Positions 2,350 to 53,100 of a DNA stretch of 64,000 nt are shown here, piece by piece (position 1 is the first letter of the stretch; each line of letters starts with the position of its first letter). The translations under genes were made by a program, and so were the position numbers. Under the pieces are notes generated by a model. The model was not told the DNA's origin and did no database searches. It was given only the letters and a program-made list of their open reading frames with translations. The stretch covers positions 5,084,001-5,148,000 of the forward strand of contig NC_134025.1 of assembly GCF_964204645.1 (NCBI RefSeq). Direction: 5' to 3'. Origin of the DNA: Tubulanus polymorphus (Eukaryota > Animalia > Nemertea).

Positions 2350-2680
2350 CTATTGTCGAAACAACGGTTCCCACAAAATAGAAAGAGCCCGAAAAGTCCC
2401 AGCGCATTCGTTTATGCTCCAAAAATCCAGCAGTAGTCGCTTCTGAATGTAATTCCAACAGTTCAAATAACTCCGTTTGATTTATATCCTGGTAACGCTT
2501 AATGAAGCTATTCAGAGACTGCAGGTAATTTTTCCGTTCTAGGATCTCATTGTCCCGTTCCAAGAACACAAATAACGTCGCCCCAAACAGCATGTAGATG
2601 ATAAGCACAACCGCCAGAAGAAAAAAACGGGCATTGTCTTCCCTCAAGTTCAAACGAGCGCAACAGCCGACGTGGTTCAT
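2350..2680 (-). CDS. KCNK13: K2P potassium channel THIK (KCNK13/12-like), first coding exon, proximal copy A (N-terminus, M1, cap, P1 helix); remaining exons lie left of the window
   Basis: Translation has LNLREDNARFFLLA and RWDFSGSFYFVGTVVSTIG, characteristic of THIK channels; ends at phase-1 donor ATAG|GTAAGC at 2350/2349. Confidence 0.9.
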
Positions 2681-2845
2681 TCTTATCGGACGAAGTTCTT
2701 GTTAAAATCCGACAAATGCGACGTCATAACGAGTGAAGAAAATTAACCTGACGCATTCAGTCACTCGATGGAATTCAAACTTGCATAGATTTTCTAGTGA
2801 GGCGAACTAGGCAAGTAATACATACCACTCGACACCAGTCCAGTC

Positions 2846-11431: not shown

Positions 11432-11885
11432 GGGTCATCCTTATTACCGAGATGATGTATTTTACCGAGATGAACCGAGATCAACCGAGATGAAATTAAA
11501 TATAACATATCTATTTATTCCTTATCGATTTTAACACTTGAAATCACGTTATATCAGTAATAAATACCTCCTAGAGTCATATTTTACATATTTTTTTATT
11601 TAAAAAAATTTTGACTCAAAAAACGTAAACTCGGTTAGCAATAAAATTTCATTGAATTTGATTGATCGACGATCTCATCTCGGTAAAGTTAAAAGTTATT
11701 TTTCCAAAAATATCCGACAAAATATGTAAACTATGAACCCAGCAGGCATTTATTACTGATATAATATGATTTCAATGGTTAAAATCGATATGGAAGGAAT
11801 AAATAAATATGTTATATTTAATTTCATCTCGGTTGATCTCGGTTCATCTCGGTAAAATACATCATCTCGGTAATAAGGATGACCG
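11432..11885. mobile_element. Mutator-like MITE, 454 bp, ~160-bp terminal inverted repeats, 9-bp target site duplication
   Basis: GGTCATCCTTATTACCGAGATG... inverted at both ends; CCAATCCAA at 11423-11431 and 11886-11894; subterminal ACCGAGAT motif four times per arm. Confidence 0.85.
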
Positions 11886-12052: not shown

Positions 12053-12637
<585 letters not shown>

Positions 12638-17025: not shown

Positions 17026-17847
17026 TCATCCATCCAAGTTTTCATTTTCTACGCACACCATCACGGGATAATTCGTTTCAAGCCAAGTCAACAGATCTTT
17101 CGGATTGAAAGAGAATGGTCCGACTCCACCTTGATATTTGATGATTCCGCCGACGATGGCGTAAATCCGTTCATTCACCGCACCAAACGATCGCATGCAA
17201 TTATTGTCAAGATCGTCGACGACGACAAAAAACGGTAGACCCATTTCAATGATAAACGTCGCCGCGGCGAATCTATCACTTAATGTACGGTGCATGTTTA
17301 CTTCCCGGCCGGTGCTCCGAAAACCCGGCCAGCGATCAGTAGGATGAGATTCGTCGATATAAACTAAAACGAAATCAACGACGCCAGAAAAATCAAAAGC
17401 CATTCTGCTGAGATCTTCCAAAGCATCCATAAACGGTGGTCAGGTGCAGTTCCCGAAGATGACCACCAAAGGTCTGCCGTTTCTCGCGTAATCCATCAGT
17501 TTCGCTTGTTTTTGGTCTACAACAGCAAAAACCGTAGGGTTAGGCGCTTCCTGGTTTATGCGCGCTAATTTCAATGTATCGTAGTAATGGGTTTTCAGTA
17601 CAAGTTTAAAACTTTCCAGCGAAAACAGCGACTCGGCCGCCTCAGTAGTGAAATTTTCGTATTGTCGTTTAGCCACGTTGGTCATTTTCGAAACGGCAAC
17701 CCTGCGAATCGGTGGAAATATTCCGATAGGAAACAACATCAAATGAATGTAGCAAATGACGATAAAGATGATGAAAAATCGTAGCCATGTGAATGTACGT
17801 CTTACGCCCGACGACAAGTCCGATACAAATTTATTCCAGCCTCCCAT
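17026..17847 (-). CDS. Iodothyronine deiodinase (selenoprotein), intronless, ~273 aa, Sec codon TGA at 17440-17442
   Basis: Two listed ORFs are in frame across TGA giving RPLVVIFGNCT-U-PPFM; also YIDESHPTDRW, VDDLDN, ERIY motifs and an N-terminal hydrophobic segment; ATG at 17847 in good Kozak context (listed ORF start at 17934 is TTG). Confidence 0.93.
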
Positions 17848-19069
17848 GTTTCTTGTGAGAAAACGGTTTTTGAGATGTCTCCAATGTTGGATCCCAATAT
17901 GTATTTGGTGCGCGCCAAAAACCGCCGCTTCCAATCATTACATCAGCTTAAAAATTACAGCGTGTTATTGGTTTCGATCAAGATGACGTCATCATTTTCT
18001 AACTGGCCAAGTGCGAACAAATATCGATATCATGTCACTGAATCATTCATCAGGATACAGTTTCATCAGATGCTGTGTGTATAACTGCGAAGATACCGGG
18101 GATAAAAACTTAAGACAGAAACCTGTATGCCTCAGCGAAATCTATCTCTTCCAATGAGTAATAAATTATTCCCATTTCCATAGAACAGCATTTCCAAAAG
18201 GTTTAAATTGTCCGAAGCTTCAGATTAGCCACGCTGTACTTTTCCTACTTTTCCTTGCAATCCCGATGCGGATATAAGAACTCGAAGATCCGAAAATAAT
18301 TTCTTCTTTTTCAACAGGTCCTCTTCAATCATATATCGGTGATATTCGGTTTCCGAAAACCTCATTGCGTCGGAATGAGATCGTTTCTAGAGCACTCATT
18401 TGTCATCGAGAAATAAGCTTGAATGAGATCATTTAGCCAGAGGCAATTGAACCCGTAACCGAATCTGGGCTAAATGATTCCCCGTTAGCAAACAAATGTG
18501 AAGTGTGATAAGCTTTTTGGTAATTGCTAGGCATCGGCGGTCAATTTGAGGAATCGATCGCAGAAAGGGCGGTCGACTTTTTGGAAAATGAATGATGCAT
18601 TTAATACAATACATTCAATAGTTCGAAATGATACTCAAGTGATAAGATTGCCAGAAATTAACCAAATATTGAAATTTTGTGCAATCTTCGTCATTCAAAG
18701 AACTAAAAGATCCGTGGTATCTACGGTGCTATCAAGATCTTTTGTTTTCTAAAACCAGTATTGATGGCGAAGATAAGGCTCGAGTGGAACTAAGCCACAT
18801 GGCTTGTTGCAAGTCTACTAAAGTTCTACTGTTTTAAATTCGACTGCCCGCGGTGCGCAATTCTGTCAGGTAACTGTACGGTGCTGCCACCATGTCACCT
18901 TGCTGCCCGGAGCTGTCCAGACCGCGTCGATGGATGCCCGTATGGTGCTGCCGCCATGCCTTAACGACCAACGTTAGATCCAACAGCAAGATCCACTACT
19001 ACTAGCAACGTTAGTTTGTTTTCCAGTTAAGTCATTGTTTCGAGCGTTTATTATTCTTCAAACACTACA

Positions 19070-26700: not shown

Positions 26701-29700
26701 TCCAACTTGCCACTGCCATGCCTAATGAGAGAAAACTACATATCAGAACAATGTTTTCCCGAAGGTGACTTTTAGAATATAGTTGAAATGCTAAATAAAC
26801 TACTAGCTCTGGAGACTTTTATATTTTTCATTATAATTGTGGGATATTCTACATACTATCTTCACAACAAGGATGTAATGTTTCATCAATGGTTATACAT
26901 ATCAGAACATCGGCATGGTCGTTCAAATGACCAGTAAATGGAGGAATTTCTTACCTCTCTGATGCCGATTTCACTTTGACAATCAGTAAAGTCCATCACT
27001 AGTAAAATTGCAGTGACATACATCACCCATTCAATGAAATTCTCCATTGTGAGGTAATGCAGTTTTGACTGATATATTTGGAACAGCTGAAAAATAATTG
27101 AAGACGCTCATGTACAAACTGCTATGTTATTCTTCAAAATCATAACCCTAAATTTTACATACAAAGAATTAGCAATCAAAGTTCGTATACGTTTTTGAGA
27201 AGAGCAAAATCTGAATAAATGTCAATCGTATTGAAATATTTACCTCTCGCAGTAGATTGAAAGCCGTCAATGAAATTATGACCCATTTCGATATTTTTAA
27301 GATCAACTTCCCAGTTTCATCCAACAATTCAGTGTAACCATTTGCCCTAACATCCTCACAACCAGTACAATTCCTATAGTAAGAGATAAAAGATACTTAA
27401 CTTGTAGCCATCGGATTGAAAGGATTTAGAACAATGCGAAATTATTCAAAGATTTTACGTACATTGTAGATTTGCAGTAGGCAAATGGAGGAAATGCGAC
27501 CATTGTATACGTGGTAAGAAACGTCAAAAATATGACATAAAAACTGAGATTCCCGTAGTAAACATAACGACCAAAGCTATTCCACTTGTGACGCAATAGT
27601 GAAGTAACCAACGGATGCATCAGTAAATCTTCACGATTGGACTGCACCTGAATAAAAATGCACCTGATATTAAGTAACATGTATATTTCTAACGAGTACC
27701 GGGCATCTTTTCCTGATCATTTACCATTATCATCAATGGATGATTTTTCTTAATAAGAGTTGAGTCCGCTGAATATGGTTTAACGTCTTCTTTCAGACGA
27801 AATTCTTCATCATAGATATCGCCTGAATAAAAAAATCAATATCACTTACTTACTAATTAACATTTACAAATACAAATTTACAAATCACAAAACCAGGATC
27901 CTTTATGCAAACCTGGGTCAGTTCCTGATTCGCTTTGTGGAATTTCCTTCCAGTATGAATACATGTCATCCAGAAATTCATAGTTGAATGTGATTTTGTA
28001 CTTCGGATGTTCAGCATTCATTGAATTAGATGACGTACACTTCATGAAAACTTTCTCAGCCACATCTGAAATCAGGTCGATCAAGTGTTACACCGATCCA
28101 CTTGAGAACTGGGTTTTTCTCAAACAAGACTATGAAAAACAAGTGTATGAATTATAAATACCTGGCATCTTCTTGATGAGTTTCCTCATGGGAGTATTCC
28201 TCCTACCAGAGGAGGGATCTGAAGTTTCATTTCGTAATGCTTCCTCCCAGCGGTCACTTTCACAAATAACAGTAGCTACATCCCTGAAATAAAAAATGTC
28301 ACCAGTAAAGAATATGACTTTGATGTCGATTTTCATGTGTGAGTGCTCCCCACGGGAATGTGGTAAAACCTATTACCTGAAGTTATTGTCAATAGCTAAG
28401 TCGAGACAATTGTTACCATCACTATCACGCTGCTCCACTGAAGCGTTCCATGCGAGCAACAATTTAACCATATCAGCATGACCTCTAGATGATGCCAAAT
28501 GAAGGGGTGTGGTCTATAATAACAAAACACAGAATCATTTTCATTATGATTTAACACTGAGTATTTAGTGATTTTAGCCAAGTAATGCGTTGTACATGCG
28601 GTTACACCCAAAATATACTTTAGCTACAACTTAAGTGAAACAGAAATCACGGAATCTTGAAGTAATCAAACCATGCATGAATCAAAAACGTATAATAAAC
28701 AGTTCTTGTCAGAGAAAAGGATTGAACTATGGTATCTAATAGAAAATTATCAACACAGTTTATATTCTAAGGGAAACTTTGAAGATGAACACACGTTTTT
28801 CTCACTTTCATAGAGTAATTCATGTTAGATTACATTACTATATCAATATACAGCTGGTCATAGTCAAAATTAGAGACACACTACAAGTGTGTTTTTACTC
28901 AAATACATGTACTTCTGAAATATATGCTACTCAAATGTGGTAATTAATGCTAATTAACTTTCAAATTGCATACATAGAGAATGGGTTAAAATTATACAGC
29001 TCAAAGAACACGATCAAATAAATAATTCTACAGAGATAAATCAACATTTCCATTCGAGATCATTCTTCGATCAGATAGGGCACCAATCAGTGGTTCAATT
29101 TGAAATTGGAAGCAAATGATTTCTAAAGCACGATGGAAATGTTATAACATAAGAAACTCACCATACACGAGGGACAACAATAGATTTTACAAATAGATCT
29201 TTTATACATTCTACCGATACCTTAGACTTATCCATAGGGTCGACAGGACTGTCATTATCAAGTAAACGACGAGCTGTCTTAACCCAACCTTTTGCGGCTG
29301 CGCAATCGAGTGGTGTCCACAGATTACAATTCCTGTCAGCAAGATTATAGCAAAGTTAAATAGCGCTAACTACGTAATAAGATATCAAAGCACAGATACT
29401 GTCACCAAAAGAGAAGATTGTGAATAAGAATCCTCCCAACTCGGCACTCATGATGTTGGGTGTCTAATTTTCAGCTCCCTTTGAAAGTGTTTACCGGTAG
29501 TTTTAACTACATGTTAGCCTTTTCGACACCAAACACCTCTAACACCATTTACAGTATGAATATAATAACGGTATCACAGTCACCACAACTACCTGGTACG
29601 TATATATTGACAGGCAAATAGTTTAGATTTGATGCTTCTCGGATATATGATTATAGATAGAATCCTTTGAAAGTGATACTATACAGAAATCCATACATAA

Positions 29701-32700
29701 TTTAGGCAAATGATTGCCATCTTGGTGAAAAGAATATAATATATGCCCAAATACGAAACAAAAGTTAAGACTACCTTCGATTTATCAAGAGGGTCAACGG
29801 GACAGTCGTGGTTCAATAATGCTTTAGCAACGTTCATTGAACCATTGGCAGCTGCACAATCCAATGGAGTCCATAAAGAACAATTCCTAAGCAAAAGTTG
29901 TATCACTGAATATCATTGTTATTCTACCAGATTTTAACAAAATCGATTCCTATATAAATGATGTGTACCTGACCTATAGAAACATTTAAGGGCCTGATTT
30001 TACGAATTCACTCAGTGGAATATATATTCATATTAAACATCTTATAAGATGAACTTTTATATGACTAAAGTTGCAGTGACTTTTCTTCATGGGGGTGACA
30101 AAGAATACCACGAAATATCCCATATCTGTGCTAAGTGTGTAATAATCTTTTGTGCAAATAAATGTTCAAATCAATCAAAGTGTATATGTTCTAAATATGT
30201 TAGTGGCATTTAATTGTTACTTTGCTTCGATTAGTTCAATCAACAAGCCGCGCTACCAACAGCAGTCAACATTAAATCATAAACCAATCGATCAGATTGA
30301 TAGTTCAATAAATCAATCAGTTATTGGTGGATATTGTGTTAATTGGTTAAATGTAAATGTATAATGGTGTAGTACGCGTTGTATACCTTGGATTTGTCTA
30401 GAGGATCAACAGGACAGTCGTTGTCCAGTAAAACCTGCGCGCATTTCAGTGACCCATTAGCCGCTGAACAATCAAGCGGGGTCCACAAACTGCAGTTCCT
30501 GGTAGCAACGAAAGTGATTTTTGTGTATAATTACATTGTTCAATAAACATACCCATGCTATCAAGATGTATTTTCGTACATGATACTAAGTTCAATTCGT
30601 CATTTATTCTCCTCAAGTGGTCGAGGTAGCAAAGTGATCGAATCATTAGCCGCGGTGATTCAATACATATTCCATATGAGCTGGAAATAATTCAGGCCAT
30701 GCTGATCACGGCGATACTCTACATACCTGGCTTCAATATCAGCTCCCATTTCTATCAGTTCAGCCGCGACTTTAGCATGACCCGCTAGAGCAGCAAGATG
30801 AAGAGCGGTATTCGAATCTTCATCTTCATCATTGACAATCATTTTATTTCTTCTCACCAACTCCCTTACAACTCTAAAACATCAAGCAACTCATTAAATA
30901 TTTCAACTCCTAAAGACTACAAAAATACGATGATATTGATATTTTTTTGGATAAATTCAATAGTAACTCATTATGTAAACTTACTTTGTTCGGCCATATT
31001 TAGCACCGAGATGAAGTGGAGTTTGCTCTTCCTCATTTTTAGCATCCAGCTGAGCTCCATGATCGAGCAGGCTCTAAATACGTGGATATGTTTAAATCAG
31101 TTGTATTTACAAGTGTTTTGGACATAATAGTGCGCTTTGAATTGAGTGGAAAATGCCAAAATCTACCTTAACTATGGCTAGATAACCTTTCATGGCTGCG
31201 ATATGTAGAGGAGAATTATCATATCGATCGCTAGAGTCAATCAAACCATACTGAGTTGCTTTTGGATGATTTGCTAGAACCTAAAATATAACAAAAGAGT
31301 CTAAATTACTCTTTTCTGTGGCATAGAAATCTTATACAAGTATGTACACATAAAACCAGCATAGTCTAGAATTCTAACTGAAATTACCTCTAGAGCCTCA
31401 ATGTTGTCTTCCTCAGCGGCCCAGTAAAGAGCAGTTTTATCGTTTTTGTCCATAGCTCTAATATCTGCACCACGTTTCAGTAGGGCTTGTTCCGTTTCAG
31501 CATGACCATAACAAGCAGCGATTAGAAGTGGAGTGAAATTGTCTCGATCTCTTCGTTCAATCTTAGCACCCCTACGAAAAAACCAAAACTTTTCTACTAA
31601 TGTTTCTGAGTTATTTTACTAACTGGCGTACACGATGTGTACTTGGTTCAACATAAACTTACTTGTCCAATAAGTACTCAACAACCTTTGCGTGGTTATA
31701 CTTGGCTGCCTGATGTATTGGTGCGGCCTGTTGTTGATTGAGGGCATCAATTCTAGGATTATGATCGCAAAGAAGTTTCACAATTTCCAAATCTCCTGAC
31801 TGCGCTGCTAAGTGTAAAGCAGTGCTGTAGTTTTTCCTATGTCCATTTACATCAGCGCCTAGAAATTATGATACAGTCACAATTTAAGATTAAATCGACA
31901 TAGAGATATTAAAGATTTTCAATTACCGGGTAAGTTTTACCTTTCTCAATCAAAAGTCTAGCAACTTCATAGTTTCCATTTTCAACAGCTAAATGTAAAG
32001 GTGAACTTTGATCGATATCTTGGTCTGTCACCATCTAATGATAAAAGAGATGAGTTAAAATATTCAAATATCAATAGGTATGATGGCAAAATATATCAAC
32101 AATTTATTGGATTGTCTTAAAATCCTTCTTGAATATATTTCTGAGAATATCAATAACGATCTTTAAGTCTCTTACTTGTGATATTGTCACCCAACCATCA
32201 AGCTTTTCACCAGCATCAAACAACAATTTACACATTTCGACATTTCCTTCCATAGCGGCGAGATGAAGAGGGGTTGATAGCTCTTCATCAACGCAGCGTA
32301 ATTTAGTACCTGCTTCTATAAGCATACGACAAATTTCTAGATGATTGTGGGTAGCCACGAGATGCAATGCTGTCATATTCGTCTTGTCTACAGCCTATAA
32401 ATATGATTCAACAATTTCAAAAGTGCATTTCATCAAATAAGGACATGATTTCAACTGTAAAATTTTCATTTCAAATTGTGTCACGGTAGGGTAAGTTTTT
32501 GGCTCTATATTCATTCATAATTGATTCACCCATTCCGAGTCTACTGGGATTATGGATACGTTTAGAAAATTGAATAATTGTTCATTTTTTGACTCGTGAT
32601 ATCTAAAACAGACAATGCTTTACCTCTATCTGAATTTCAGGACAAAGCAGCAAATCGCGGGCAGCCACTTCATTTCCCCTCATGGCGCTGTAATGAAGGG

Positions 32701-35700
32701 GTGTCAAACCATAGATATCCCGACAATTCGGATCAGATCCATGTGATATGAGGTATTCAATGACGCTAGGCTGCTCGTCGACATCCTTTTCAGCAGTTCC
32801 CTCTTCATTTTCATTCGGAGTGACATCTCCGTTAGGCTAGATAAATTGGAAAGAATTCATAAAACCGAAACTGCAAGAATGGGTTAAATTGAAGTGACTA
32901 CATGCATTCGGGTGATGTTTACAACATTAATCAATAGTACCGGCCATTACTGAGGAAAATTGGGGAAAATTTGATCTAGAAATTGATTGACACCTTGAAG
33001 ATTATCTAATCAACTGGTTATTAGAAATTGACAACGGTATAACTCTATATTCACTCTCATAAAGGTACTATTTATGCAGTATACAGTGACGTGTTTTTGT
33101 GACCATTCAATATCAGTGACAATGATATATTACGATCAATATTTGGAAAACAGCATCGCGATGCAAAAACCGTATCACGAAATAACTTCATCAATGTTCA
33201 GCTAAAACAGCACTAGTGTTTGCTCACTGAGCAGCTGAATATAGGGTAGATTGTATCCCATAAGTGATAAGATCAGTTCTATGTATTGCCAACTTTCAAG
33301 CAGGGTTCTTTTTACAGGGGTTAGTCTGACTGGTTTCTATTTTTTACCAATTTAATCTCCGGCACTCTGAGGAAAGAATGTTATATCAACAAGTGGCTGA
33401 TTCATTGAGATTTCTCATCCATGTGATATGAAATAATATCCTGGGTGGATATAGATGATAATTATTGATATAACTAGATTGCAATGACTGGGTGTGGTTG
33501 AATTGTGCATGTTGACTGTTTTAAGTTGATCTATACAAATATGAAGTACCTAGTACTCAAACATTTCACAGCTGAAGGTATTATATCTCAGTATACAAGC
33601 TCCCACGTGAATCTGATACAATTGTGAATACACATAGAATGGTACATCAGCAGCAAAGCCAGAGAGGGCTATCGGTTTGAACTAGCAAATCAAGCTTGGT
33701 ACATGTATTTCAAAGAACAGCAAAAGAAAAGTGACAAAGAACAGAAATATTGATTCCTATAAATAAGTTTAGGATACAGCCGGAGGATTCCCACTAGACG
33801 CATGAGTTAGATTTCTTGCGAAACCTTTTATGTGCAGATTATATGAACAGACATAATACATTATGAATATAGCCATGTATATTCTGTTTCCACGGCAAGT
33901 TTAAAGTGGAAACTCACAAGTTTAATATAGGCCCTAGAATTCTTCTAACATCTCTAGTGAGAATCTGCATTAAAATTTGAAGTTTAACAATTCAAATTGT
34001 GAAGCAACATTTAGAGCAATTCACACACATTTCAAACTCAAAGAATTCCACTGAAATTTCTGATGCCTCTCAGTAAAAGTGTTTCTATAGTTACTGTAAA
34101 TATCCAATTTCAAGTCATTGATTAGAATCACCTATGCACATATGACAGGAATGAAACTATAATTCTATTTCAGCTCGAAGCGATGAAGACATCGAAATTA
34201 CGAAACACGAATGACCATGTTTAAAACTGAATTTTTTTGAAACAGAAACCTTGACAGATGCTAAGTGGAAAAGCAAAATCAATGTGTGCTATACATGAGG
34301 GTCAAAATATTATCCATACTTGTGCAATTCCACTGTCCGTACTATCAGCAATCTGAAAACATAATTCATTTGTTCCATGCAAAATACGGTTCATAAAAAA
34401 TTCTCAAACATTACAGCCAATGAAATATACACTATCATGTCCTCATTATCAATTTATTATCCCGAATATACCAGAAGGGGTGAAATTATTGGCTGAACTA
34501 CAAACTCATCTTAGAAATTGTGTGTCTCATTGATTTCTTCTGGATCTGTCCGAAGGATTATATTGCTGGATTAAAGATTACACGATAGGGGCAAACGCAC
34601 CTTCACCAAATTACTGCAGATGATTTTTCAAATTTTATATTAGAAATAAGACAAACATCCAAGAATGTAAGTATATAAGCTATATACGCGAGGGCAATCA
34701 TAATCATTGATGTCATTTCATTTCTATCTGACCAGTTTACATTCTTTGACGCACAGATATATAGATGAGTGCTATGACTCATTACAGTACGTTCACAAAT
34801 AAATAAGAGGTTTTGAACTGACGAGTACTATGACTTATTAGAGTACGTTTACGGTGTATTAGAAACTAATTCGAGAAGTTTCGTAGGTGTATTGATTAAT
34901 ATCTGGTAAACGTTTGAAATATTATGAAATTAACTCAAAACCATTTCACTTACGTTCATACAATAGCATGTAATTGATTGTGAGAGATGAAATTATATCA
35001 ATAAACACAATTTCAGTATTATAATAAACAAATCAGCAAAGAACTTAAAGGAATTAATAGTTAATGTAATCAAGTAAAAAAAACAATACCAGTAGATTGG
35101 TTTGGTTTCAAGAAAAGGTTTAAGCATTACAAAGCAAGGCAATCTTTCCTCACTGGAAATAAATCTGAAAACTCCCACTGCAATTGATTTATTGTTAAGA
35201 TGTTGTGTAATTTTCAGGGGCAAGGAGAGCAACCAAAATTCTTATGAAACCGAACCCAACATGGCAGTAAGAAAACAAGACATACACACACATACATATA
35301 TCATACATACTGGAGCATATAAGGTACTACTTGTAGACCTGTGGTGTAACTTCTGCAATAGATTTGACAATAACACAAATACGTAAAATATGTATGTGAT
35401 GACCATACATTTCCATAAGGTGAAAAACTAGACCCTTGGCAATACAGTTATTCACTATGCAATTAGTATACAAACGTCAGGTTTTAGTGTTTTAGTTTCT
35501 ATGCAGAAAATGGTTGAATTGCTCACGAAAATAGTAAGTAATACTCTTATCCAAACAAATTTACGAATTACGAATCATCATTTTTGCGACTATTTCAGAG
35601 TTTGAATTTCAACAAAGAGCAACTAAAACATGATCTTTTTTATCAGCTTCAGTGAAAATCCATATGACAAATTGACAAAATCAGCAGCAATTACAGTACA

Positions 35701-36738
35701 CGAACATAGAATACAAGAATGTGAGGTCGTAACTAATCTTACCTTCGAGTCGGGGATGTTTTCATCGACGGACCTAGATCGGTTGATTTTTTGTTTTTTA
35801 TATCGAGCTCCGTAATGAAGAGGAGTCGCGTCATCTTCACCGCGATCGTTTACATCTAAATGAATTAAAAACGTAGTTCACGATTACAGAATATTTGTAA
35901 GAAAATACCGAATATTCTGCCAGGTTTTTAAGGATGATTCACTTACTCGCTCCTCTTTCAACCAGAAGTTTAACAATGAGATAATGATCGTAACGAGCCG
36001 CGTAATGAAGGGCGCTTAGTTTATTTTCATCATGCCAATTAATCCTTTTCTTGAGCTGACCCTTCGACATTTGATCGAGAAGTCGGCGTAATGAGTCAAC
36101 ATTGCCATCTCTAGCGCACTGAAATGAATTTTTTTATATCGGTTTAGAATAGGCCTAATTTGAAATCGGAAATTCAGCTCCAAGCAAGCTCATGAAAGTG
36201 TAATAAGGTTAATTGAGTAAATAAGTGGGTAAGTATACTAATATATGAGTTATTCACTCAATTAACCTGTTCTTCTCCGTTTATACCCCTGTTTTCAGTC
36301 AATATCTCACACCTGATGATGATCTCTAGGGTGAGATCGAAACGTCTTGTATTTTATATATTTTAGATTTTCTGAATTCGATTTTAAAATCATCTTAATT
36401 TGTGGGTTTTTATCTTATTATCCATTCACCACGTTAGAGAGTGGTTATTGTTCTAAGTATAATTGATATTTTACCTGATGTAGGGTTAATCCAGCAATGG
36501 ATTCAGTGCTTTCAACTCTCTTTAATCCAGGAGATGATACTAAAGTAGTTAATTCTGTTGCACCGGGTAGGGCACCCGCGATATGACGCTGTTCATTATC
36601 ATCGTCCGCGGGGTCAACAAACCCAACCGATCCAGCTACACGTGACATGTCGTATTGTCGAGTTTTACCTCCAAGGAATTTTGAAAATCGGAAGTTCAGC
36701 TCCACCGTATTTCTGGAATCTAAGATATCATCAGCCAT
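23749..36738 (-). CDS. TRPA1: TRPA1-family ankyrin-repeat cation channel, multi-exon, with mutually exclusive exon clusters
   Basis: Many ankyrin exons (SALHYAA, TPLHY, TALHLAA), linker LLMHPLVTSLLRHKW, S4-S5 LFIRKVPRFGIYVVMF, pore MMIGExEY, S6/TRP-like MNLLVGLAVDDIKAVQEQAVLKRLAMQ, C-terminal coiled coil; first coding exon 36475-36738, last 23749-23955; exact TRPA subclade unresolved. Confidence 0.92.
25439..25639 (-). CDS. TRPA alternative pore+S6 exon P2 (201 nt)
   Basis: TTTCAG|VSFRRFDFSLIKTTVMMIGEFEYDDLF...IMMSIITMNLL|GTAATT, phase 0-0. Confidence 0.9.
25706..25894 (-). CDS. TRPA alternative pore+S6 exon P1 (189 nt)
   Basis: TTGCAG|VTFNSFGKTLVKTMVMMIGEMEYEGVF...IVMSIIIMNLL|GTAAGT, phase 0-0. 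Confidence 0.9.
29221..29332 (-). CDS. TRPA alternative ankyrin exon C (112 nt)
   Basis: CAG|G-NCNLWTPLDCAAAKGWVKTARRLLDNDSPVDPMDKSK|GTATCG. Confidence 0.9.
29775..29886 (-). CDS. TRPA alternative ankyrin exon B (112 nt)
   Basis: TAG|G-NCSLWTPLDCAAANGSMNVAKALLNHDCPVDPLDKSK|GTAGTC. Confidence 0.9.
30387..30498 (-). CDS. TRPA alternative ankyrin exon A (112 nt)
   Basis: CAG|G-NCSLWTPLDCSAANGSLKCAQVLLDNDCPVDPLDKSK|GTATAC. Confidence 0.9.
34320..34352 (-). CDS. Candidate 33-nt TRPA microexon (IADSTDSGIAQ)
   Basis: GTTTTCAG acceptor, GTATGG donor, phase 0-0 like the flanking exons, no stop. Confidence 0.55.
36309..36350 (+). ncRNA. Minimal type I hammerhead-like motif, probably a Penelope-like element remnant
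   Basis: CTGATGA-T-GATCTC-TAGGGT-GAGATC-GAAA-CG-TC; stem II perfect, stem I partly mismatched. Confidence 0.5.
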
Positions 36739-39064: not shown

Positions 39065-43200
<4,136 letters not shown>

Positions 43201-44227
43201 ATTGATTGAGATTATAATGATTTCTTATCCAAATCTGCAAAAGAAAATATTGATTTTTAATATGCAAACTCCAGGGAGCCTAATGAATATCTAAGCAATT
43301 AGGCTCAAAATTATCTTTTTATTTGAGCCAGTGCATTCAATTCTTAATTCGAAATGCCCAAATAGTTGCTATCAGTATTAGGCCTATGTAGCCTGCTGAT
43401 ACTAGATCCTGGCCCCTGCTCTCCAAATCAAATTCCATTTAAAAGTCTTAGCAAGACTAAAGTGTCCAAATCAGACTAACCAGGCGATCACCCAGTGGCA
43501 GCAGTAGCCCTGACTTGTACTGACACTGACACCGTACACATGTCATATATATACAAAACATACACAATAAATTAATTTAAATTTGACTTGACTAATGATT
43601 GGTTATGTAATGTACACGAAATAACCCGTTTGAAAAGGGACAGACTCTGAATTTAAAGTTAACAGGAGGTAAGATGTGATATAGATGGTATGCCTGAATA
43701 GTATGCATAACGTGTATTTCGGCTCAGAAACCTTTAGATTTGTATTTTTGAAACAGGTTAAACTGCAGCTATGCAGCATGTCCCGTGAGAGGACCTGGGG
43801 CCTGTGACGGGACAAGGATGTCCCGTCACAGGTCCCGATGGAAAATGAAAACTTTGCATTTCGTAGACGAAATGTCGAAAGAAACTGCACTCCATTGGTT
43901 ACTATATACACTCAAAATAATGTTAAGAACATGTTAATAATCGAAATTTGTTCGTAATTTTATTATTTCAGATCAATGATATCATCAAATCGAAACATTA
44001 AATGTAATAATGAAGATCGGATCAAGAGAAGACAGAACCACAGCTATCGAAATTTCAATTTTTAGTGTATAGACTGACTCATACTATCGAAAATAAAGTG
44101 AATGTATCTTGACAATTTTGGTGCCAATGGTGTTAGTAACCGTTTGTTAAGCGTTACACTGCAAACAAAAGTAAAAGTGGAGGGGGCAACTTAATGGCCC
44201 TAGATCACTCTCGAGAGAGAATTCAAA

Positions 44228-45251
44228 GTGAGGGACCCGATTCAACACACTGTCCCGTGAGAAGACCCGATTCAACTTACTGTCCCGTGAGAGGACCCGA
44301 TTTCAAATACTGTCCCGTGAGAGGACCCGATTCAACACACTGTCCCGTGAGAGGGCCCGATTTTAAATACTGTCCCGTGGGAGGACTCGATTCAACACAC
44401 TGTCCCGTGAGAGGACCTGATTCAACACACTGTCCCGTGAGAGGACCCGATTTCAAATAATGTCCCGCGAGAGGGCCCGATTCAACACACTGTCCCGTGA
44501 GAGGACCCGATTTTAAATACTGTCCCGTGAGAGGACCCGGTTCAACACACTGTTCCGTGAGAGGGCCCGATTTTAAATACTGTCCCGTGAGAGGATCCGA
44601 TTTTGAATACTGTCCCGTGATAGGGCCCGGTTTCAAATAATGTCCCGTGAGAGGGCCCGATTCAACTCACTGTCCCGTGAGAGGGCCCGATTTTAAATAC
44701 TGTCCCGTGAGAGGACCCGATTTTGAATACTGTCCCGTGAGAGGGCCCAGTTTCAAATAATGTCCCGTGAGAGGGCCCGATTCAACACACTGTCCCGTGA
44801 GAGGACCCGATTTTAAATACTGTCCCGCGAAGGAACCCGATTTTAAATACTGTCCCGCGAGAGGGCCCGATTCAACACACTGTCCCGTGAGAGGACCCGG
44901 TTTCAAATAATGTCCCGCGAGAGGGCCCGTATCAACACACTGTCCCGTGAGAGGACCCGATTTTAAATACTGTCCCGTGAGAAGACCCGAATCAACTTGC
45001 TGTCCCGTGAGAGGGCCCGGTTTCAAATAATGTCCCGTGAGAGGGCCCGGTTTCAAATAATGTCCCGTGAGAGGGCCCGATTCAACACACTGTCCCGTGA
45101 GAGGACCCGATTTCTAATACTGTCCCGTGAGAGGACCCGAATCAACTTGCTGTCCCATGAGAGGACCCGGTTTCAAATAATGTCCCGTGAGAGGACCCGA
45201 TTCAACACACTGTCCCGTGAGAGGACCCGATTCAACACACTGTCCCGTGAG
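44228..45251 (+). repeat. Left 30-bp tandem array (~34 units), TGTCCCGTGAGAGGACCCGA plus variable 10-mer
   Basis: Exact 30-nt period visible from 44251 to 45251. Confidence 0.97.
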
Positions 45252-45682
45252 CCAAAAGTTGTTGAATGAGTATCTTTATGACAAATAGTGAATATTGTTG
45301 GAATATTTCTCTATTTTGATTTATAGGTGTCCGGCGAACGACAGGACCAAGACGATGACGTGGGCGATGATATTTCAAACGTGAGTCAAAAGTTGTTGAA
45401 TAAATATCTTTATGACAAATAGTGAATACTGGTGGAATATTTCTCTATTTTGATTTATAGGTATCCGGCGAACGACAGGACCAAGACGACGACGTGGACG
45501 ATGATATTTCAAACGTGAGTCAAAAGTTGTTGAACGAAAAGTTGTTGAATAAATATCTTTATGACAAATAGTGAATATTGTTGGAATATTTCTCTATTTT
45601 GATTTATAGGTGTCCGGCGAACGACAGGACCAAGACGATGACGTGGGCGATGATATTTCAAACGTGAGCCAAAAGTTGTTGC
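45247..45682 (+). repeat. Three tandem copies of a ~135-150-bp intron plus 54-nt exon unit
   Basis: Exons 45327-45380, 45461-45514, 45610-45663 each encode VSGERQDQDDDV(G/D)DDISN between TTTATAG and GTGAG. Confidence 0.9.
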
Positions 45683-47941
45683 ATGAAAACTTCAATGTAC
45701 AATATGAAAAAATGATCAAATATTGAAAAAAAATATATTTTACTGTATGAAATTACAGGTGTCCGCAGAAGACGGCTGGCTTAGATTGTATGACGACGTC
45801 TTTGATATACAAAATCTCACCGAGGCAGAACAGATTAAAATCAGTATGAAGTTATCACTCAAAGAGTCACATCTCCGTCAGAGTGCAGAGAAAAGGCTTC
45901 AATCTCTAGTTTCCGAATCCAATCTGAATATTGTGTCGGTCGCGGATGACGGAAGCTGCTTTTTTTGCAGCTGTTGTCGAACAATTGAGGCGAGAAAACG
46001 TTGACATAACAGCACATGAGCTACGATTAATGGCTGTTTCATACCTTTCTGAAAATAGATATTGCGCTGTAAGTAAATTAAAAACCCATTGATATATCAA
46101 GACAGACTACAATAAATATTATATACACATATTATGGTTTGCTTCGCTGGATGGGGCTGATAAGGCCGACTTTCTGGAGTCTCATCTGACATGGCCATTA
46201 TATCTTAATAAAATGAGACAAAGAACCACCTGGGCCGATGCTTTAGTTGTCCGTGCCACAGCTGACTGTTAAGGGAGACCAATGGTACTATATACCAGTT
46301 CAGAGCAGTCAAACATCAATATGATAGATCCTGTCGAATGTAAAAATGCTGAACCCATCTTACTAGGGCATATTCAAGATATTCACTACGTTGCCCTAGT
46401 AAAAAGGAGCTATATCCCATGACGACGCGTGTCAGTCGAGAGTGTCAGAGGGTACCCTTGCGGCCTAACCCACGGAAGACGGTAAGTTGATAGTATATGC
46501 CACCCCTTCTGACTATTTGGCAAAAATAATACAGCCATCAGAAGCCTTGTTCATGTCAGCTAAGGGTTAATTAATTGAATTTCATAGCGTCAAAGTGACA
46601 GTTACCTCTGAGAACCGCAGAAAAAAAGAAGACGGGTTGTCGATAAAGGAATCTACTGCGTTTGCAAGAAACCAGATGATGGAAGGTAAAGCTTAATTAT
46701 ATCATATAAGATCAGGCTGTTGTTTTAAGATTCAGTCGTCATTGTCGAAAAAATCTTTTACCTTCACTTTCACTTTCACTTACCTTCACTTTCAAAATTT
46801 TCTGCATTTGCATTTTGGGAAGTATTTGCAATGCGATGAATGTAGTGGGTGGTTCCATCCGAAATGTATTGGTCTGAACGAAGATACTGTGGAGAAAATT
46901 GACTATAGATGCGAAACGTGTTTTTAGGTAAGCGATGAACTAAAAAAATATTTTGATCAAATAAGCTATGCCTATATCCTTGCTATGCTATCCTTTTATA
47001 CAATGTGATTGCATTCTTTTTATATAGGTACCTAAACGATTCATTAAGAGTCAGGTATGGAATCCGATACATAATGCATACGAAACTCTTGCCATTTTCC
47101 ACTAGAAAGCAATGAATCAAATGTTTTTCTTTTCGCAGCTTGGCGCGGTTGAATATCACGTTTCTCGTATAATTAATGCCGAGATAAAAGACAAGAGGTA
47201 AATATTGTACCTTAGTAGAAATCTCGCCAGTTTGTTGAATTTTTCAAACTTTTGTTGATAATATACAATCTTTGGTTTCAGAAGGCCGGAATTCAGGAGA
47301 CATTTGGACTTGATTAACAAAGACCATGAAAGAGCCGAAAAAGAACTGAAAGGATATGGCTATGGGCTTTTAACTGATGAGGTAAGCATTGATAACAGAA
47401 AATATGAAATGCGTACAAATAAATGAGCTTTCTTTCGATCATCGTAATATTCAATATTTTAAAGGGCCATGCATATCTCTATAGTGTAATGAAATCATAC
47501 GTCAGCCCTACCTTTGCGGACAAATCGTAAGTATATACATGAATCAGACGTGAAGTTTTTTTACTATATTTCGAAATGATAATCAATTCATTTCAATTAC
47601 AGGAAACCATATTCAACTCGCTACATGACCCTCCGACAACATCATTCTAAAATGCTGAATTCAGTTTTTAAAGAAGGAAAGACGTAAGTTCATTCTCATC
47701 TTCTATTGCTAATTTCTTAAAAGAATTTCATCCATGTTATATTCATTGTATTAAAATATTTTTCAGGTCAGCAGTAACGTATGTTAATGACGTTTTGCTT
47801 AAAGAGGCCATTTGTTTATTGGTGTCAACCTACCGAAATATCACATACAACGAGGCTGATATTCTTGGAAGAAGAACAGAGGCCAAAAAACTAAAAGATG
47901 TACAACGACTAATGTCCAAATACTTCTTGCCAGATTATTGA
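45327..47941 (+). pseudogene. 5'-truncated spliced transposon gene: acidic repeats, UIM-like helix, OTU cysteine protease, PHD finger, unknown C-terminal domain
   Basis: VADDGSCFF(frameshift in T7 at 45960-45966)AAVVEQL...HELRLMAVSYL; YLNKMRQRTTWAD..(TAA 46270-46272)..ILLGHIQDIHYVAL; IYCVCKKPDDG / LQCDECSGWFHPKCIGL...YRCETC; further small GT-AG exons ending in TGA at 47939-47941. Confidence 0.82.
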
Positions 47942-48864
47942 AGAGTGAAGCAGTTTTCGATTCTTAAATGGGAGCTGTTGTAGATTGGTTATCCCGTAAT
48001 GATTGTATTCTATGGAATAAGTTTTCTTGTTGCGATGAATTTTTGGATTGCTAGAGATGGTCTTTGCTGAATTTTGGTAATGGTTTTAATAGGAACCAGA
48101 TTGTGACATGGATGTTTGAATTGTTGAAATGCTGTCCAGTCTTCTAATAGATGTGTGTAGTATATAGCCTATAGAAGTTCTTTGCAATGATGTTTCAGAA
48201 GTTATGAATGATGGTTGAAAGATTCCAGCCGGGGCCGAGATGGTATTGTAAATTGTTGTTAATTAGTGGATCGTTTTATCTGCCTGGTTTGTTGTCGATG
48301 TCTTATGCTGTGTACTACTTCGTGTTAAATATTATTTTTGTATTGTGTCTTAACAGACAAGGGCGTTTTCTGTCATCCAATATGAAATGATAATTTTTGG
48401 TTCAAATTATAATACATCTATCCGGAATTGGGAAATATTGCTGAAGAGTAAAAGGGGAAATATGAAAGAATTGATGATAACCTTTTTTACCGTGTAAAGT
48501 AATAATTAATAATTAAATGATAAGTAATAATTTAGTTTGGCGACAAAGATTTAGTAATCTAAAATGCTAAATTGATTTCGAATTCCAACGTATGTTGTTT
48601 ATGTTCAAATATGAATAATATAGTCTTCGAATGTAATATGGTTTACAGATTTTGATAAATAAATAACTGAACATAATTTCACATATATACGATTTGTTTT
48701 ATGTTTTAAGGGGACATAGCCAATTTGGCTTTTAGTACGTACATCCAGCCATCATTGTACGCATATTGTTGAAATAATAATTTCTTGTTGTAATTTTTAT
48801 ATATGGCAAAAATGCATTATCATTATGAGCATGGGACTCAACATTGACAAAGTGGACAATTTTA

Positions 48865-50150
48865 GTCCTCTCACGGGACAGTGTGTTGAACCGAGTCCTC
48901 TCACGTGACATTCTTTGAAACCAGGTCCTCTCACGGAACAGTAAGTTGATTCGGGTCCTCTCACGGGACAGTGTGTTGAATCGGGTCCTCTCACGGGACA
49001 GTATGTTGAATCGGGTCCTCTCACGGGACATTATTTAAAAGCGGGCCCTCTCACGGGACAGTGTGTTGAATCGGGTCCTCTCACGGGACAGAGTGTTGAA
49101 TCGGGCCCTCTCACGTGACATTATTTGAAACCAGGTCCTCTCACGGGACAGTGTGTTGAACCGAGTCCTCTCACGTGACATTCTTTGAAACCAGGTCCTC
49201 TCACGGGACAGTAAGTTGATTCGGGTCCTCTCACGTGACAGTGTGTTGAATCGGGTCCTCTCACGGGACAGTATGTTGAATCGGGTCCTCTCACGGGACA
49301 GTATTTAAAATAGGGTCCACTTACGGGACAGTGTGTTGAATCGGGTCCTCTCACGGGACAGTGTGTTGAACCGGGTCCTCTCACGGGACAGTATTTAAAA
49401 TCGGGTTCCTTCGCGGGACAGTATTTAAAATAGGGTCCTCTCACGGGACAGTGTGTTGATTCGGGTCCTCTCACGGGACAGTGTGTTGAATCGGGTCCTC
49501 TCACGGGACAGTATTTAAAATAGGGTCCTCTAACGGGACAGTATTTAAAATCGGGTCCTCTCACGGGACAGTGTGTTGAACCGGGTCCTCTCACGTGACA
49601 TTATTTGAAACCAGGTCCTCTCACGGAACAGTAAGTTGATCCGGGTCCTCTCACGGGACATTATTTGAAACCAGGTCCTCTCACGGGACAGTGTGTTGAA
49701 TCGGGTCCTCTCACGGGACAGTATTTAAAATCGGGTTCCTTCACGGGACAGTATTTAAAATAGGGTCGTCTAACGGGACAGTATTCAAAATCGGGTCCTC
49801 TCACGGAACAGTGTGTTTAATCGGGTCCTCTCACGTGACATTATTTGAAACCAGGTCCTCTCACGGAACAGTAAGTTGATCCGGGTCCTCTCACGGGACA
49901 TTATTTGAAACCAGGTCCTCTCACGGGACAGTGTGTTGAATCGGGTCCTCTCACGGGACAGTATTTAAAATCGGGTTCCTTCGCGGGACAGTATTTAAAA
50001 TAGGGTCGTCTAACGGGACAGTATTCAAAATCGGGTCCTCTCACGGAACAGTGTGTTTAATCGGGTCCTCTCACGGGACAGTATTTAAAATCGGCTCCTC
50101 TCACGGGACATTGTGTTGAATCGGGACCTCTCACGGGACGGTAACTTGAA
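48865..50150 (-). repeat. Right 30-bp tandem array (~43 units), inverted relative to the left array
   Basis: TCGGGTCCTCTCACGGGACA recurs every 30 nt; the TCACGGGAC(A/G) core runs from 48871 to 50140. Confidence 0.97.
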
Positions 50151-53100
50151 TCGCGGGTTCCGTTGTAAAATCCTGCGTGAAAAACGTGCATTCATATCCC
50201 CTATTGTCCCCCTGGCCCTGCAGTAAATTAGAATTTTTCGGTAGGCCCTCATGTATTTATAAATGAAATCAAAATGGAAAATGTAATAATTACAATCGAT
50301 AGTTGAATTTATTTATTCATAATCGTTATAGGCAGAATACATAAGAATATATAAGGGACTCGAAACCGCTAGCATTGGAATCGACGTTTCATGTAAGAAT
50401 TCTACATTTGTCCCGTGAGAGGACCCATGTCCCGTCACAGGCCCGGGTCCTCTCACGGGACGCTGCAGTTAAACTCATATGGAATTTTTGTATTAACTTC
50501 ACAACTTACTTCCGGGTTTCTAGAAAATACAGATACGCTGGCCAAAATGATCAAAAATGTGAGAGTTATTTCAGAATTAAGTCTCTTGTGACCACCCTAT
50601 ATTTAATGTCAGGACTAAAACACATTAGAAAATTGTTAAAGTTACTGATGATTTAGAGGGATTTACTACTAGGACTACATTTCCTTGTTTTTTCATTTTC
50701 TAGTAACCGACATGGTTGGTACAAAGTACGGTTCCGGACTGACTGCGGCCCGGCCTGTTGGTGACGAGACACTGACCGGGCGGGCCGGGTTTTATACAGA
50801 AGCTCACTTACACCATTCAGTCGGATTTATCTCATGATGTCCAACCACCACCACCATTAATTAGACAACTGATGGAGTTTTGAAGAAAATCATATGTAAT
50901 GCCCACATGAATGATGCTAAGCTCTAACCTCACAAACGTACAGCAAGCGACAATTAAATCGGAAGAATTTTATTCATATTTTCCCCTTTGTGAATCAAAT
51001 ATATCTTTTATTCATATATATGTATTATATACATCGCTAAATTACTGGTGACAATGATTTAAGTACAAGTGCACAATAAAATGCACTTGATTAGTACTGC
51101 TTTCAGTAAAATCTACCAAAAACCACTTAAATTCATCAAGAAGGAAAATTAATTCTATGAAGGTTATGCCCCTACAATTACATGTATCTTCAAGCTCAGT
51201 TTCAGTTATAAGAATACAATACGTTTGTAAAGTATTTTAGGTCATGGAGTTATTTCATCTTCCTGAGGATCCTTACCCCTAATCCTAGCCCTATCCACGG
51301 ACATATAAACTCTAGTTCTTATGTCCATGCTCTATCATAGAACAGCCTCATAGAACCACGGCCTATATGCACACTTTGGTAGTGACATTAACAGAGGAAC
51401 ATTAAGTGTTCATGTAAGTGATCTCTGGCCAATATTAATCTATTGTTGAAAAGCATTTTAGAGACTTCCATCTTTGTCATAAATATAGCTAATATTTAGC
51501 TAATACAAACTGATATCGAAGGTTTACCCTGTAAAGACCCATATCGCACTCAATACATAAGTATCATTTTGACAATATACCATTACTGGTAATCAAAAGT
51601 TGGATCAAATTCTTTTTTACACACCCTCAAAAACATTTACAACATTTTCACTGAAACTCAAACGATTGTCAGAGCCCCAAAATGTTTTATTACATAAATT
51701 ACATATTATTTCTTAAGGGGCTATTTGATACCATCCGAATAATAATTCGAAATCAGTAGCCTCATTCATAGAGCAGTGGCGTTGGAAGTGCAGCGACTGC
51801 GGGGGCGAAAGCCGCGGCAATAATTTACTGAATGGCGTTTTTTTTCCTTTGAATATCACGTTTTTGAAGAAATTAAGTAAATTCGTCGTGGCAATATTTA
51901 GAACCTGTTCAAAATCTGCATTAAGCCGCAGCAATCAAAAATTGCTTCCAACGCGCCTATAGAGTACAATCTACTAGAAAAAAACAACCTAGTTTCTATA
52001 TAGAGTATGGCGAGACTAGGATAGGAGAATCGTCAAAAGTAAATTAGTTTGAATATTGGTATATGTGGATTGATAGAAGATTTGTATTAATATCATCAAT
52101 GAATGAAAGTGGTATAGCATTCTATAAAAGAAATATGGGATTTCAATTGTTTTTATGCATCAAGTTAGGTTCAGTCAAATGATTCTTAGCGATAAAAATG
52201 GTGTAGACATATCAAAATACCAGGACGGATGTTGAAATGGACTGATATATCTCATAGATTGATTGAAGAAGTACTACATTATGACAATCAGAAAACAACA
52301 TGAATCATTTGAGTTAATCATATTTTGCTAAGGAAAGTAGTGTAGTAACCACCTCTGTTCGTTTTTTGTAAAATTCACATTACCAAAGTATTTTAGAGTA
52401 GATTGTTGGACTATTACCACTAACCATAGACAATAATACCGGGTATATATTTGGGTTCATATCTTACATGTATTGTAAATTCTAATAGTTGTAGAGGATT
52501 GTGGGAAGGCTGCACGTAGATAACTATATCTTCTGCATTGTTCAAGTAATTACCTATTTTGAGTATTCTAGCTACAAATAACATACAATCTAACTGTCCC
52601 TGCTCCACAAAATATATCATCACATGCCACACAATACTGAATAGATATTCCTATGTGGGCTAAACAATCAAACCCATATAATTTGAATCAAATCATTTGG
52701 GCACCAATCCAAATTTTAGTGTGACAGATGAAAATAAATTTTCCACAAGTTAAAACACACCGAGAATCCACAAGACATTTCGTGGGTCTCAACCAATCAA
52801 TTCAATGTGGGCTCAACTGTACAAACGATCCTGAATCACAACAATGCATATGCGACTAAAATAATCTGTAGCATTAGAATAAGCAAAACAAAATTATTAT
52901 GACATTTTTACAGTGATGAAAGAATTTTAAGCAAATTTATCCATCAATGTTGGGGACAGCCAAATACCATATTATCAATCACAGGCTCTTAGAATAGATT
53001 TGTTCATAGCTGATGACCTCTGATGAAATACAGCACACTGTTTGGGTTTAATCATCCATGCTGAAGTCATTGGCGATAATTTTCGAGAAAAGAACATGAG

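Follow-up and report, generated by a model that had tools for sequence, protein, structure and literature searches.

Positions 45759-47941 of the 64,000-nucleotide stretch analysed here (the window) contain the 3' part of a spliced gene that encodes a UIM-like helix, an OTU domain, a C4HC3 PHD finger and a C-terminal region of 167 residues. With a probability of about 0.7, this is a decayed gene part within a multicopy, transposase-less DNA transposon of the foldback type, which likely borrows its transposase; the gene probably belongs to the element itself and is not a recent capture from the host. This reading is built on observed features, namely the boundaries of the element, its inverted arrays, its many copies, the domain motifs, eight breaks in the gene and the intact C-terminal exons. 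Other copies were examined through sequencing reads and contigs (runs X1, X2, X3 and X5) and through RefSeq models; X1 and X3 derive from one sample, X1-X3 belong to one study and may be the window's own source, and X5 comes from a separate study. At 6.7 kb, the element is larger than the gene part at 45759-47941 and is laid out as follows.

43742..43749, plus strand: candidate left target-site duplication, an 8-bp match to 50482-50489 that has one mismatch, or its last 6 bp equal to 50484-50489
43750..50481 (right end 50481 or 50483), no strand assigned: the whole non-autonomous DNA transposon, delimited by loose read ends and a drop in depth
43750..43832, plus strand: left imperfect terminal inverted repeat, in which the array core motif occurs three times, once inverted; outer 8 nt non-complementary to the right end
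44228..45251, plus strand: left subterminal array, ∼ 34 units of 30 bp
45246..45251, plus strand: array-to-gene junction, a 6-bp microhomology with an exon donor, as read from the sequence
48865..50153, minus strand: right subterminal array of 43 30-bp units, in inverted orientation relative to the left array and with the same consensus
50412..50481, minus strand: right imperfect terminal inverted repeat, from sequence alignment

Loose read ends in X5 mark both boundaries, at 43749/43750 (20 and 51 reads) and at 50481 (59 reads), and X5 read depth is 36-140 inside the element against 2-6 in the flanks. Relative to the flank, the mean of which comes from four thin bins, depth is ∼ 15x in the coding part and 33-39x near the ends. 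This indicates that the interior is present in roughly 15 copies and that a similar number of further copies have only the ends in common. An earlier, sequence-only reading of the window had described the gene as transposon-borne, a claim that the element ends, the inverted arrays and the multicopy depth bear out. Its remark that no transposase is visible also holds, in that a Pfam search of the six frames of the element gave no transposase family at E up to 0.1.

The imperfect terminal repeats (∼ 80 bp) contain the core of the 30-bp array unit. The non-complementary outer 8 nt are a family-wide trait, as judged from the loose read ends and the alignment, and the element ends begin GAAAC and CATAT, or TCCAT two bases further. 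The flanking duplication either matches at 7/8 bp, a result with a chance of 0.8% for this left flank, or is perfect over 6 bp, with the right end then placed at 50483. In X5 and X1 alike, the loose letters behind 50481 have the same first two bases; this leans towards an end at 50483 and a perfect 6-bp duplication. There are signs of an empty allele of the insertion site: two X2 flank contigs stop at 43750 and 50484, the exact branch points computed for such an allele. The insertion appears to be polymorphic and fairly young. At 43758-43769 and 50463-50474 the same five bases lie in direct orientation beside the inverted core; this arrangement is reminiscent of a recombination-site spacer, yet other copies have 7-8 more outer bases in common. 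A viral origin was considered and dropped, since the element gave no viral family beyond one weak zero-stretch row and no viral contig match. No related locus was found among metagenome or viral contigs, and the array pattern gave 0 viral matches and 2 metagenome matches, both of them short unrelated repeats in GC-rich DNA.

The left array enters the first intron of the gene at the 6-bp microhomology, 76 bp before the first exon, and no promoter or start codon was identified in these 76 bp. An internal deletion at 45246-45251 is likely to have taken away everything upstream, that is, the 5' part of the gene. At 48862, where this copy enters the right array, 34 X5 reads run on into other sequence, and a second deletion in this copy is therefore probable at that point, with longer variants existing elsewhere in the family. 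By analogy, the 30-bp arrays are more likely to be binding sites for a transposase than targets of the encoded protein: in the MULE Muta1, a larger number of subterminal repeats leads to stronger transposase binding and more excision (available excerpts of PMC5499845).

Thirteen exons can be drawn for the gene, comprising three duplicated acidic exons, two for the OTU domain, two for the PHD finger and six for the tail.

45327-45380, 45461-45514 and 45610-45663, plus strand: three tandemly duplicated 54-nt acidic exons with AG/GT sites, 51-54/54 identical, used in RefSeq model P0004
45759..46068, plus strand: exon for the UIM-like helix and the N-terminal half of the OTU domain; Cys at 45957, extra T at 45960-66
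46150..46451, plus strand: exon for the C-terminal half of the OTU domain; His at 46384, donor at 46452 or 46482, broken acceptor at 46148, stops at 46270 and 46420, two extra bases near 46442
46588..46685, plus strand: exon for a basic patch and the N-terminal part of the PHD finger; stop at 46609-11, putative acceptor position
46819..46927, plus strand: exon for the C-terminal part of the PHD finger, with a Pfam PHD match; broken acceptor at 46817, stop at 46925-27, open in RefSeq model P0004
47028-54, 47139-97, 47282-381, 47465-526, 47603-83 and 47767-941, plus strand: six tail exons with AG/GT sites and no stop, encoding the 167-residue C-terminal region

The motifs named in the sequence-only reading are all in place. 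The UIM-like stretch lies at 45816-45866; the OTU domain has its catalytic Cys codon at 45957, with an Asp three residues before it, a Trp at 46231 and a His-Tyr pair at 46384; the C4HC3 ligands of the PHD finger are divided between two exons (Cys 46657, 46663, 46832 and 46841, His 46856, Cys 46865, 46910 and 46919); and the last exon occupies 47767-47941. Pfam profile searches recovered the PHD finger and, below its cut-off, the OTU domain. The PHD half-domain scored clearly (E 7.2e-9, 36 bits against a curated cut-off of 24), and the finger has Tyr, Tyr and Trp at three candidate cage positions, which presumably correspond to the methyl-lysine cage of H3K4me3 readers. The OTU piece, queried with its intron and two X residues included, gave E 5.3e-4 and 20.9 bits, below the cut-off of 23.3, and a single OTU exon gave E 0.0085. 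Among solved structures it matched OTUD5 (E 0.001), and the residue two after the His is Val here against Asn in OTUD5. Matches to LRP4/LRP6 structures were rejected as summed weak repeats. The UIM-like call is weak: no Pfam UIM row appeared for this exon at E up to 1 or 10, and the top PDB sequence match, a weak one, was the proteasome subunit S5a/Rpn10 (E 0.084), the aligned stretch of which we take to be a UIM.

The OTU frame is not open in this copy, being interrupted by a frameshift, a broken acceptor and stops. The frameshift at 45960-66 and the stop at 46270, by which the gene had already been called disabled, are both real, but six further breaks had been missed: the acceptor at 46148, the stop at 46420, two bases near 46442, the stop at 46609-11, the acceptor at 46817 and the stop at 46925-27. 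All eight fall in the OTU and PHD exons. Three of them are nearly private to this copy, as X5 reads carry the other base at 46420 in 56/65, at 46817 in 56/56 and at 46925 in 62/63 cases. Three others are missing in a minority of X5 reads (10/44 at 46148, 15/74 at 46442 and 12/54 at 46611), and since ∼ 1/5 of the reads are without these breaks a less damaged subfamily exists. As a separate observation, three of the four near-fixed differences listed between this copy and X5 over 45680-48000 create a stop or break a splice site (46420-46925); among all substitutions that could occur, the share of such changes is 4.8% (post hoc P about 4e-4), which is odd in a gene already broken upstream.

The two remaining breaks are shared more widely. 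Among the differences listed for the majority contigs of X1, X2 and X3 there is none at 45960-66, 46148 or 46270, and the contigs of X1-X3 that cover 45960-66 and 46270 have their differences accounted for at other positions. Intact alleles of low frequency may exist at 45960 and 46270, in up to ∼ 1/6 of the reads. The OTU domain is cut one codon past its catalytic Cys both in this copy and in these majority contigs, and 3/3 RefSeq models, which are predictions, skip the OTU exons; these data lend no support to the earlier suggestion of a present function or an action on the arrays. Because the 45960-66 frameshift and the 46270 stop also occur in the majority contigs of X1-X3, it is likely that the family spread with a dead protease and that most copies arose after the protease had died.

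The C-terminal region is 167/167 identical to the Tubulanus polymorphus RefSeq proteins P0001 and P0004 and 159/159 identical to P0003, which sit on three different large contigs, and the last exon is 100% identical to a RefSeq protein of the same species. A HMMER search over 1.84 billion representatives gave 3 matches, namely the protein itself, P0005 and a mussel protein, P0006 (E 1.6e-5). P0005 (E 5.7e-6) was rejected as an ankyrin-repeat artefact, the match being made up of six stretches with a pairwise score of 65 against a shuffle maximum of 64. Word searches with the last exon (proteins of 105-2000 aa) left one of 27 candidates, the element's own cluster, while the OTU piece (proteins of 267-2000 aa) and the tail alignment (proteins of 425-2000 aa) gave 0/1526 and 0/7991, respectively. 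Neither these searches nor HMMER returned a single-copy host gene as best match.

The P0006 cluster has 8 members, 3 of them named, from Mytilus edulis and M. coruscus, and a 441-residue member carries an Ulp1 domain (E 3e-20) followed by the same tail as the worm protein. Worm and mussel tails share 36/124 identical residues (29%), and their alignment scores 132, where 1000 shuffles reached 65 at most. The mussel protein XP_071124002.1, named sentrin-specific protease 2-like in its source, resembles the worm protein over these 124 aa of the C-terminal region but has Ulp1 in place of OTU and is without a PHD finger. The closing helices of the worm tail gave a weak Pfam PWP3A-B_C row (E 0.006-0.03; 17 bits at E 0.006, cut-off 27) and those of the mussel tail a weak RTC4 row (E 0.002-0.006, below the cut-off of 23.7). 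The AlphaFold models available for comparison with a PWP3A-B_C/RTC4-like fold had pLDDT values of 39.4 and 35.3, too low to be usable, and a Foldseek search had no match at E up to 0.001. In the ESM Atlas the worm and mussel tails gave no usable feature match, and the structure rows were all below a TM of 0.5.

Taken as the element's own, the gene likely once served the element's lost transposase. With a UIM-like helix, an OTU domain and a PHD finger in one chain, the ancestral protein may have removed ubiquitin at the element's site of action, either from chromatin or from the transposase itself: the helix would hold ubiquitin, the OTU domain would cut it and the PHD finger would bind the histone H3 tail. 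A role of such an intact ancestor in targeting or anti-silencing, as first proposed, is conceivable. The deletion at 45246-51 would have removed the promoter and the 5' exons, perhaps together with the transposase, and the OTU domain would have died before most copies were made. Today the element would be passive, moved by a transposase supplied in trans and bound at the 30-bp arrays, if the analogy to Muta1 is correct. Several points count against this explanation. No autonomous copy or transposase was found in the reads, contigs or RefSeq models. The mussel cluster extends over two Mytilus species, which would be expected of a host gene, and the worm gene has 13 exons or more. The ends are non-complementary in their outer 8 nt, and the duplication can be read as 8 or 6 bp. 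The less damaged subfamily and the possible rare intact alleles at 45960 and 46270 also belong on this side.

Alternatively, a non-autonomous element could have acquired an intron-containing 3' end (OTU-PHD-tail) from a host gene, in the manner of a Pack-MULE, and the fragment could have decayed as a passenger. The many introns and the abrupt junction with the array would fit such a capture, as would the weak similarity between the tail and the host domain PWP3A-B_C and the possibility that the mussel homologue is a host gene; non-autonomous MULEs carry host fragments in the available excerpts of PMC5499845. However, no parent gene appeared in the word searches or in HMMER over 1.84 billion representatives, although these are weak blanks. 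Moreover, the pairing of the same tail with Ulp1 in the mussel, together with the alternation of OTU and Ulp1 in Ginger1 (excerpts of PMC2836005), argues for a gene that belongs to the element, and capture is considered unlikely.

Transposases of Ginger1 end in OTU or Ulp1, the two alternating at the same place, and one has a PHD finger (excerpts of PMC2836005); the earlier statement that Ginger1 carries OTU, Ulp1 and PHD domains is thus in print. The worm gene resembles Ginger1 in having OTU at its C-terminal end, where Ginger1 has OTU, or Ulp1 with PHD, and in having introns. It is unlike Ginger1 in lacking an integrase, TGTNR ends and the 4-bp CCGG/CCGT duplication, its flanks being AT-rich; with ends of GAAAC and CATAT/TCCAT, Ginger1 identity is excluded. 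Proteases had also been ascribed to Dada, for which no trace was found: protease, peptidase, OTU and Ulp1 have 0 occurrences in the main text of the Dada paper (PMC3706591). OTU domains are likewise carried by Helitrons/Helentrons, which are animal DNA transposons too (excerpts of PMC11417382 and PMC6431247). Those elements insert at T|T or A|T and encode RepHel, whereas the worm site is T|G with a duplication, the inverted arrays are symmetric and RepHel is absent, and this identity was ruled out. In Zisupton/KDZ elements the C-terminal protease is an Ulp1. The worm protease is an OTU, and no KDZ domain was found in this deleted copy; its many exons, possible 8-bp duplication and C-terminal protease are shared with Zisupton, described as multi-exonic with 8-bp duplications in the excerpts of PMC9297572 and PMC12730594.

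A foldback MULE is the best guess for the superfamily, such elements being classed by their ends and duplication (excerpts of PMC4455052). Like Muta1 (PMC5499845) and Rehavkus and MuDR-6_HM (PMC6446971, both papers in part), the worm element has inverted ends of tandem repeats and a possible 8-bp duplication, and the long inverted ends with subterminal tandem repeats that characterise foldback MULEs are present. It also combines the two kinds of cargo reported there, an ovarian tumour domain in MuDR-6_HM and a PHD finger, along with a minisatellite, in Rehavkus (the available part of PMC6446971, including Table 1; Table S1 may list further domain orders). Unlike these elements, the worm copy, which is deleted, is without a MULE transposase, its outer ends are non-complementary, its arrays exceed 1 kb and are set 330-480 bp inside the ends, and OTU, PHD and the unnamed tail are encoded together by a single spliced gene, of which the tail is the last part. 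Against the 8-11 bp target duplication of MULEs, the worm element has a 7/8 match or a perfect 6 bp. A literature search with subscription journals outside its scope gave no paper on OTU-PHD with such a tail, or on PWWP3A/RTC4 domains in transposons. The type of cargo is known; new are the domain order, the ends and the unnamed tail domain.

The outer 8 nt that differ between the ends family-wide, and the loose letters in X5 and X1, which would move the right end to 50483 and make a 6-bp duplication perfect, could instead indicate an undescribed group that is not MULE, hAT, P or Zisupton. This proposal concerns classification and is compatible with the preferred reading of a decayed gene in a foldback-type element. 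It is doubtful, as it relies on one insertion site, where 8 bp with one mismatch fits equally, and 6-bp duplications occur in hAT6 and IS3EU (excerpts of PMC12730594). A broader proposal, similarly improbable, is an undescribed lophotrochozoan DNA transposon group with non-complementary ends that encodes a ubiquitin/SUMO-protease module around a conserved helical domain distantly related to the tail of PWWP3A, a DNA-repair chromatin factor, and to fungal RTC4. The protease would be exchangeable, with OTU plus UIM and PHD in the ribbon worm and Ulp1 in mussels, and host domains might derive from such elements.

It is very improbable that the family, by skipping the dead OTU exons, continues to produce a short protein (acidic repeats, UIM-like helix, half of the PHD finger and the intact tail) in which the tail is the part that matters. 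Such a protein is predicted by RefSeq model P0004, and 8/8 breaks lie in the OTU-PHD exons and 0 in the 504 nt that encode the tail (post hoc P about 0.02 for a uniform distribution of breaks), but an intact tail needs no selection because the copies are nearly identical, a minority contig has an 8-base loss at 47861 in the tail, the 76 bp from array to first exon yielded no promoter or start codon, the PHD exon is broken twice in this copy and the RefSeq models are predictions.

The literature, so far as the available excerpts go, leaves open why animal DNA transposons carry ubiquitin/SUMO proteases and PHD fingers. This copy, being dead and transposase-less, cannot answer the question; it does show that the protease was likely no longer working while the family spread. 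Found with two protease classes in two phyla, the unnamed tail domain is a concrete lead to what such proteases couple to.

Several other loci lie in the window. A gene of the 5'-nucleotidase family (Pfam E 8e-59) occupies the minus strand at 43200 and below, with its likely start codon at 43200, 550 bp from the left end of the element; a polymorphic insertion could affect its promoter or a 5' intron. An imperfect palindrome of 452 bp at 11433-11884, 80% self-complementary and MITE-like, is unrelated to the 6.7-kb element. On the minus strand at ∼ 29000-36000 there is a multi-exon ankyrin-repeat gene that seems to hold an internally duplicated exon and presumably resembles the N-terminal part of a TRPA channel. 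Open frames lie at 12053-12637 (plus strand), 2210-2701 (minus strand) and 17026-17934 (minus strand); we take the first to be a TMEM229-type membrane protein and the second an exon of a two-pore potassium channel, and the third looks, in our estimation, iodothyronine-deiodinase-like, with an in-frame TGA at 17440-42 that we would assume to be a possible selenocysteine codon.
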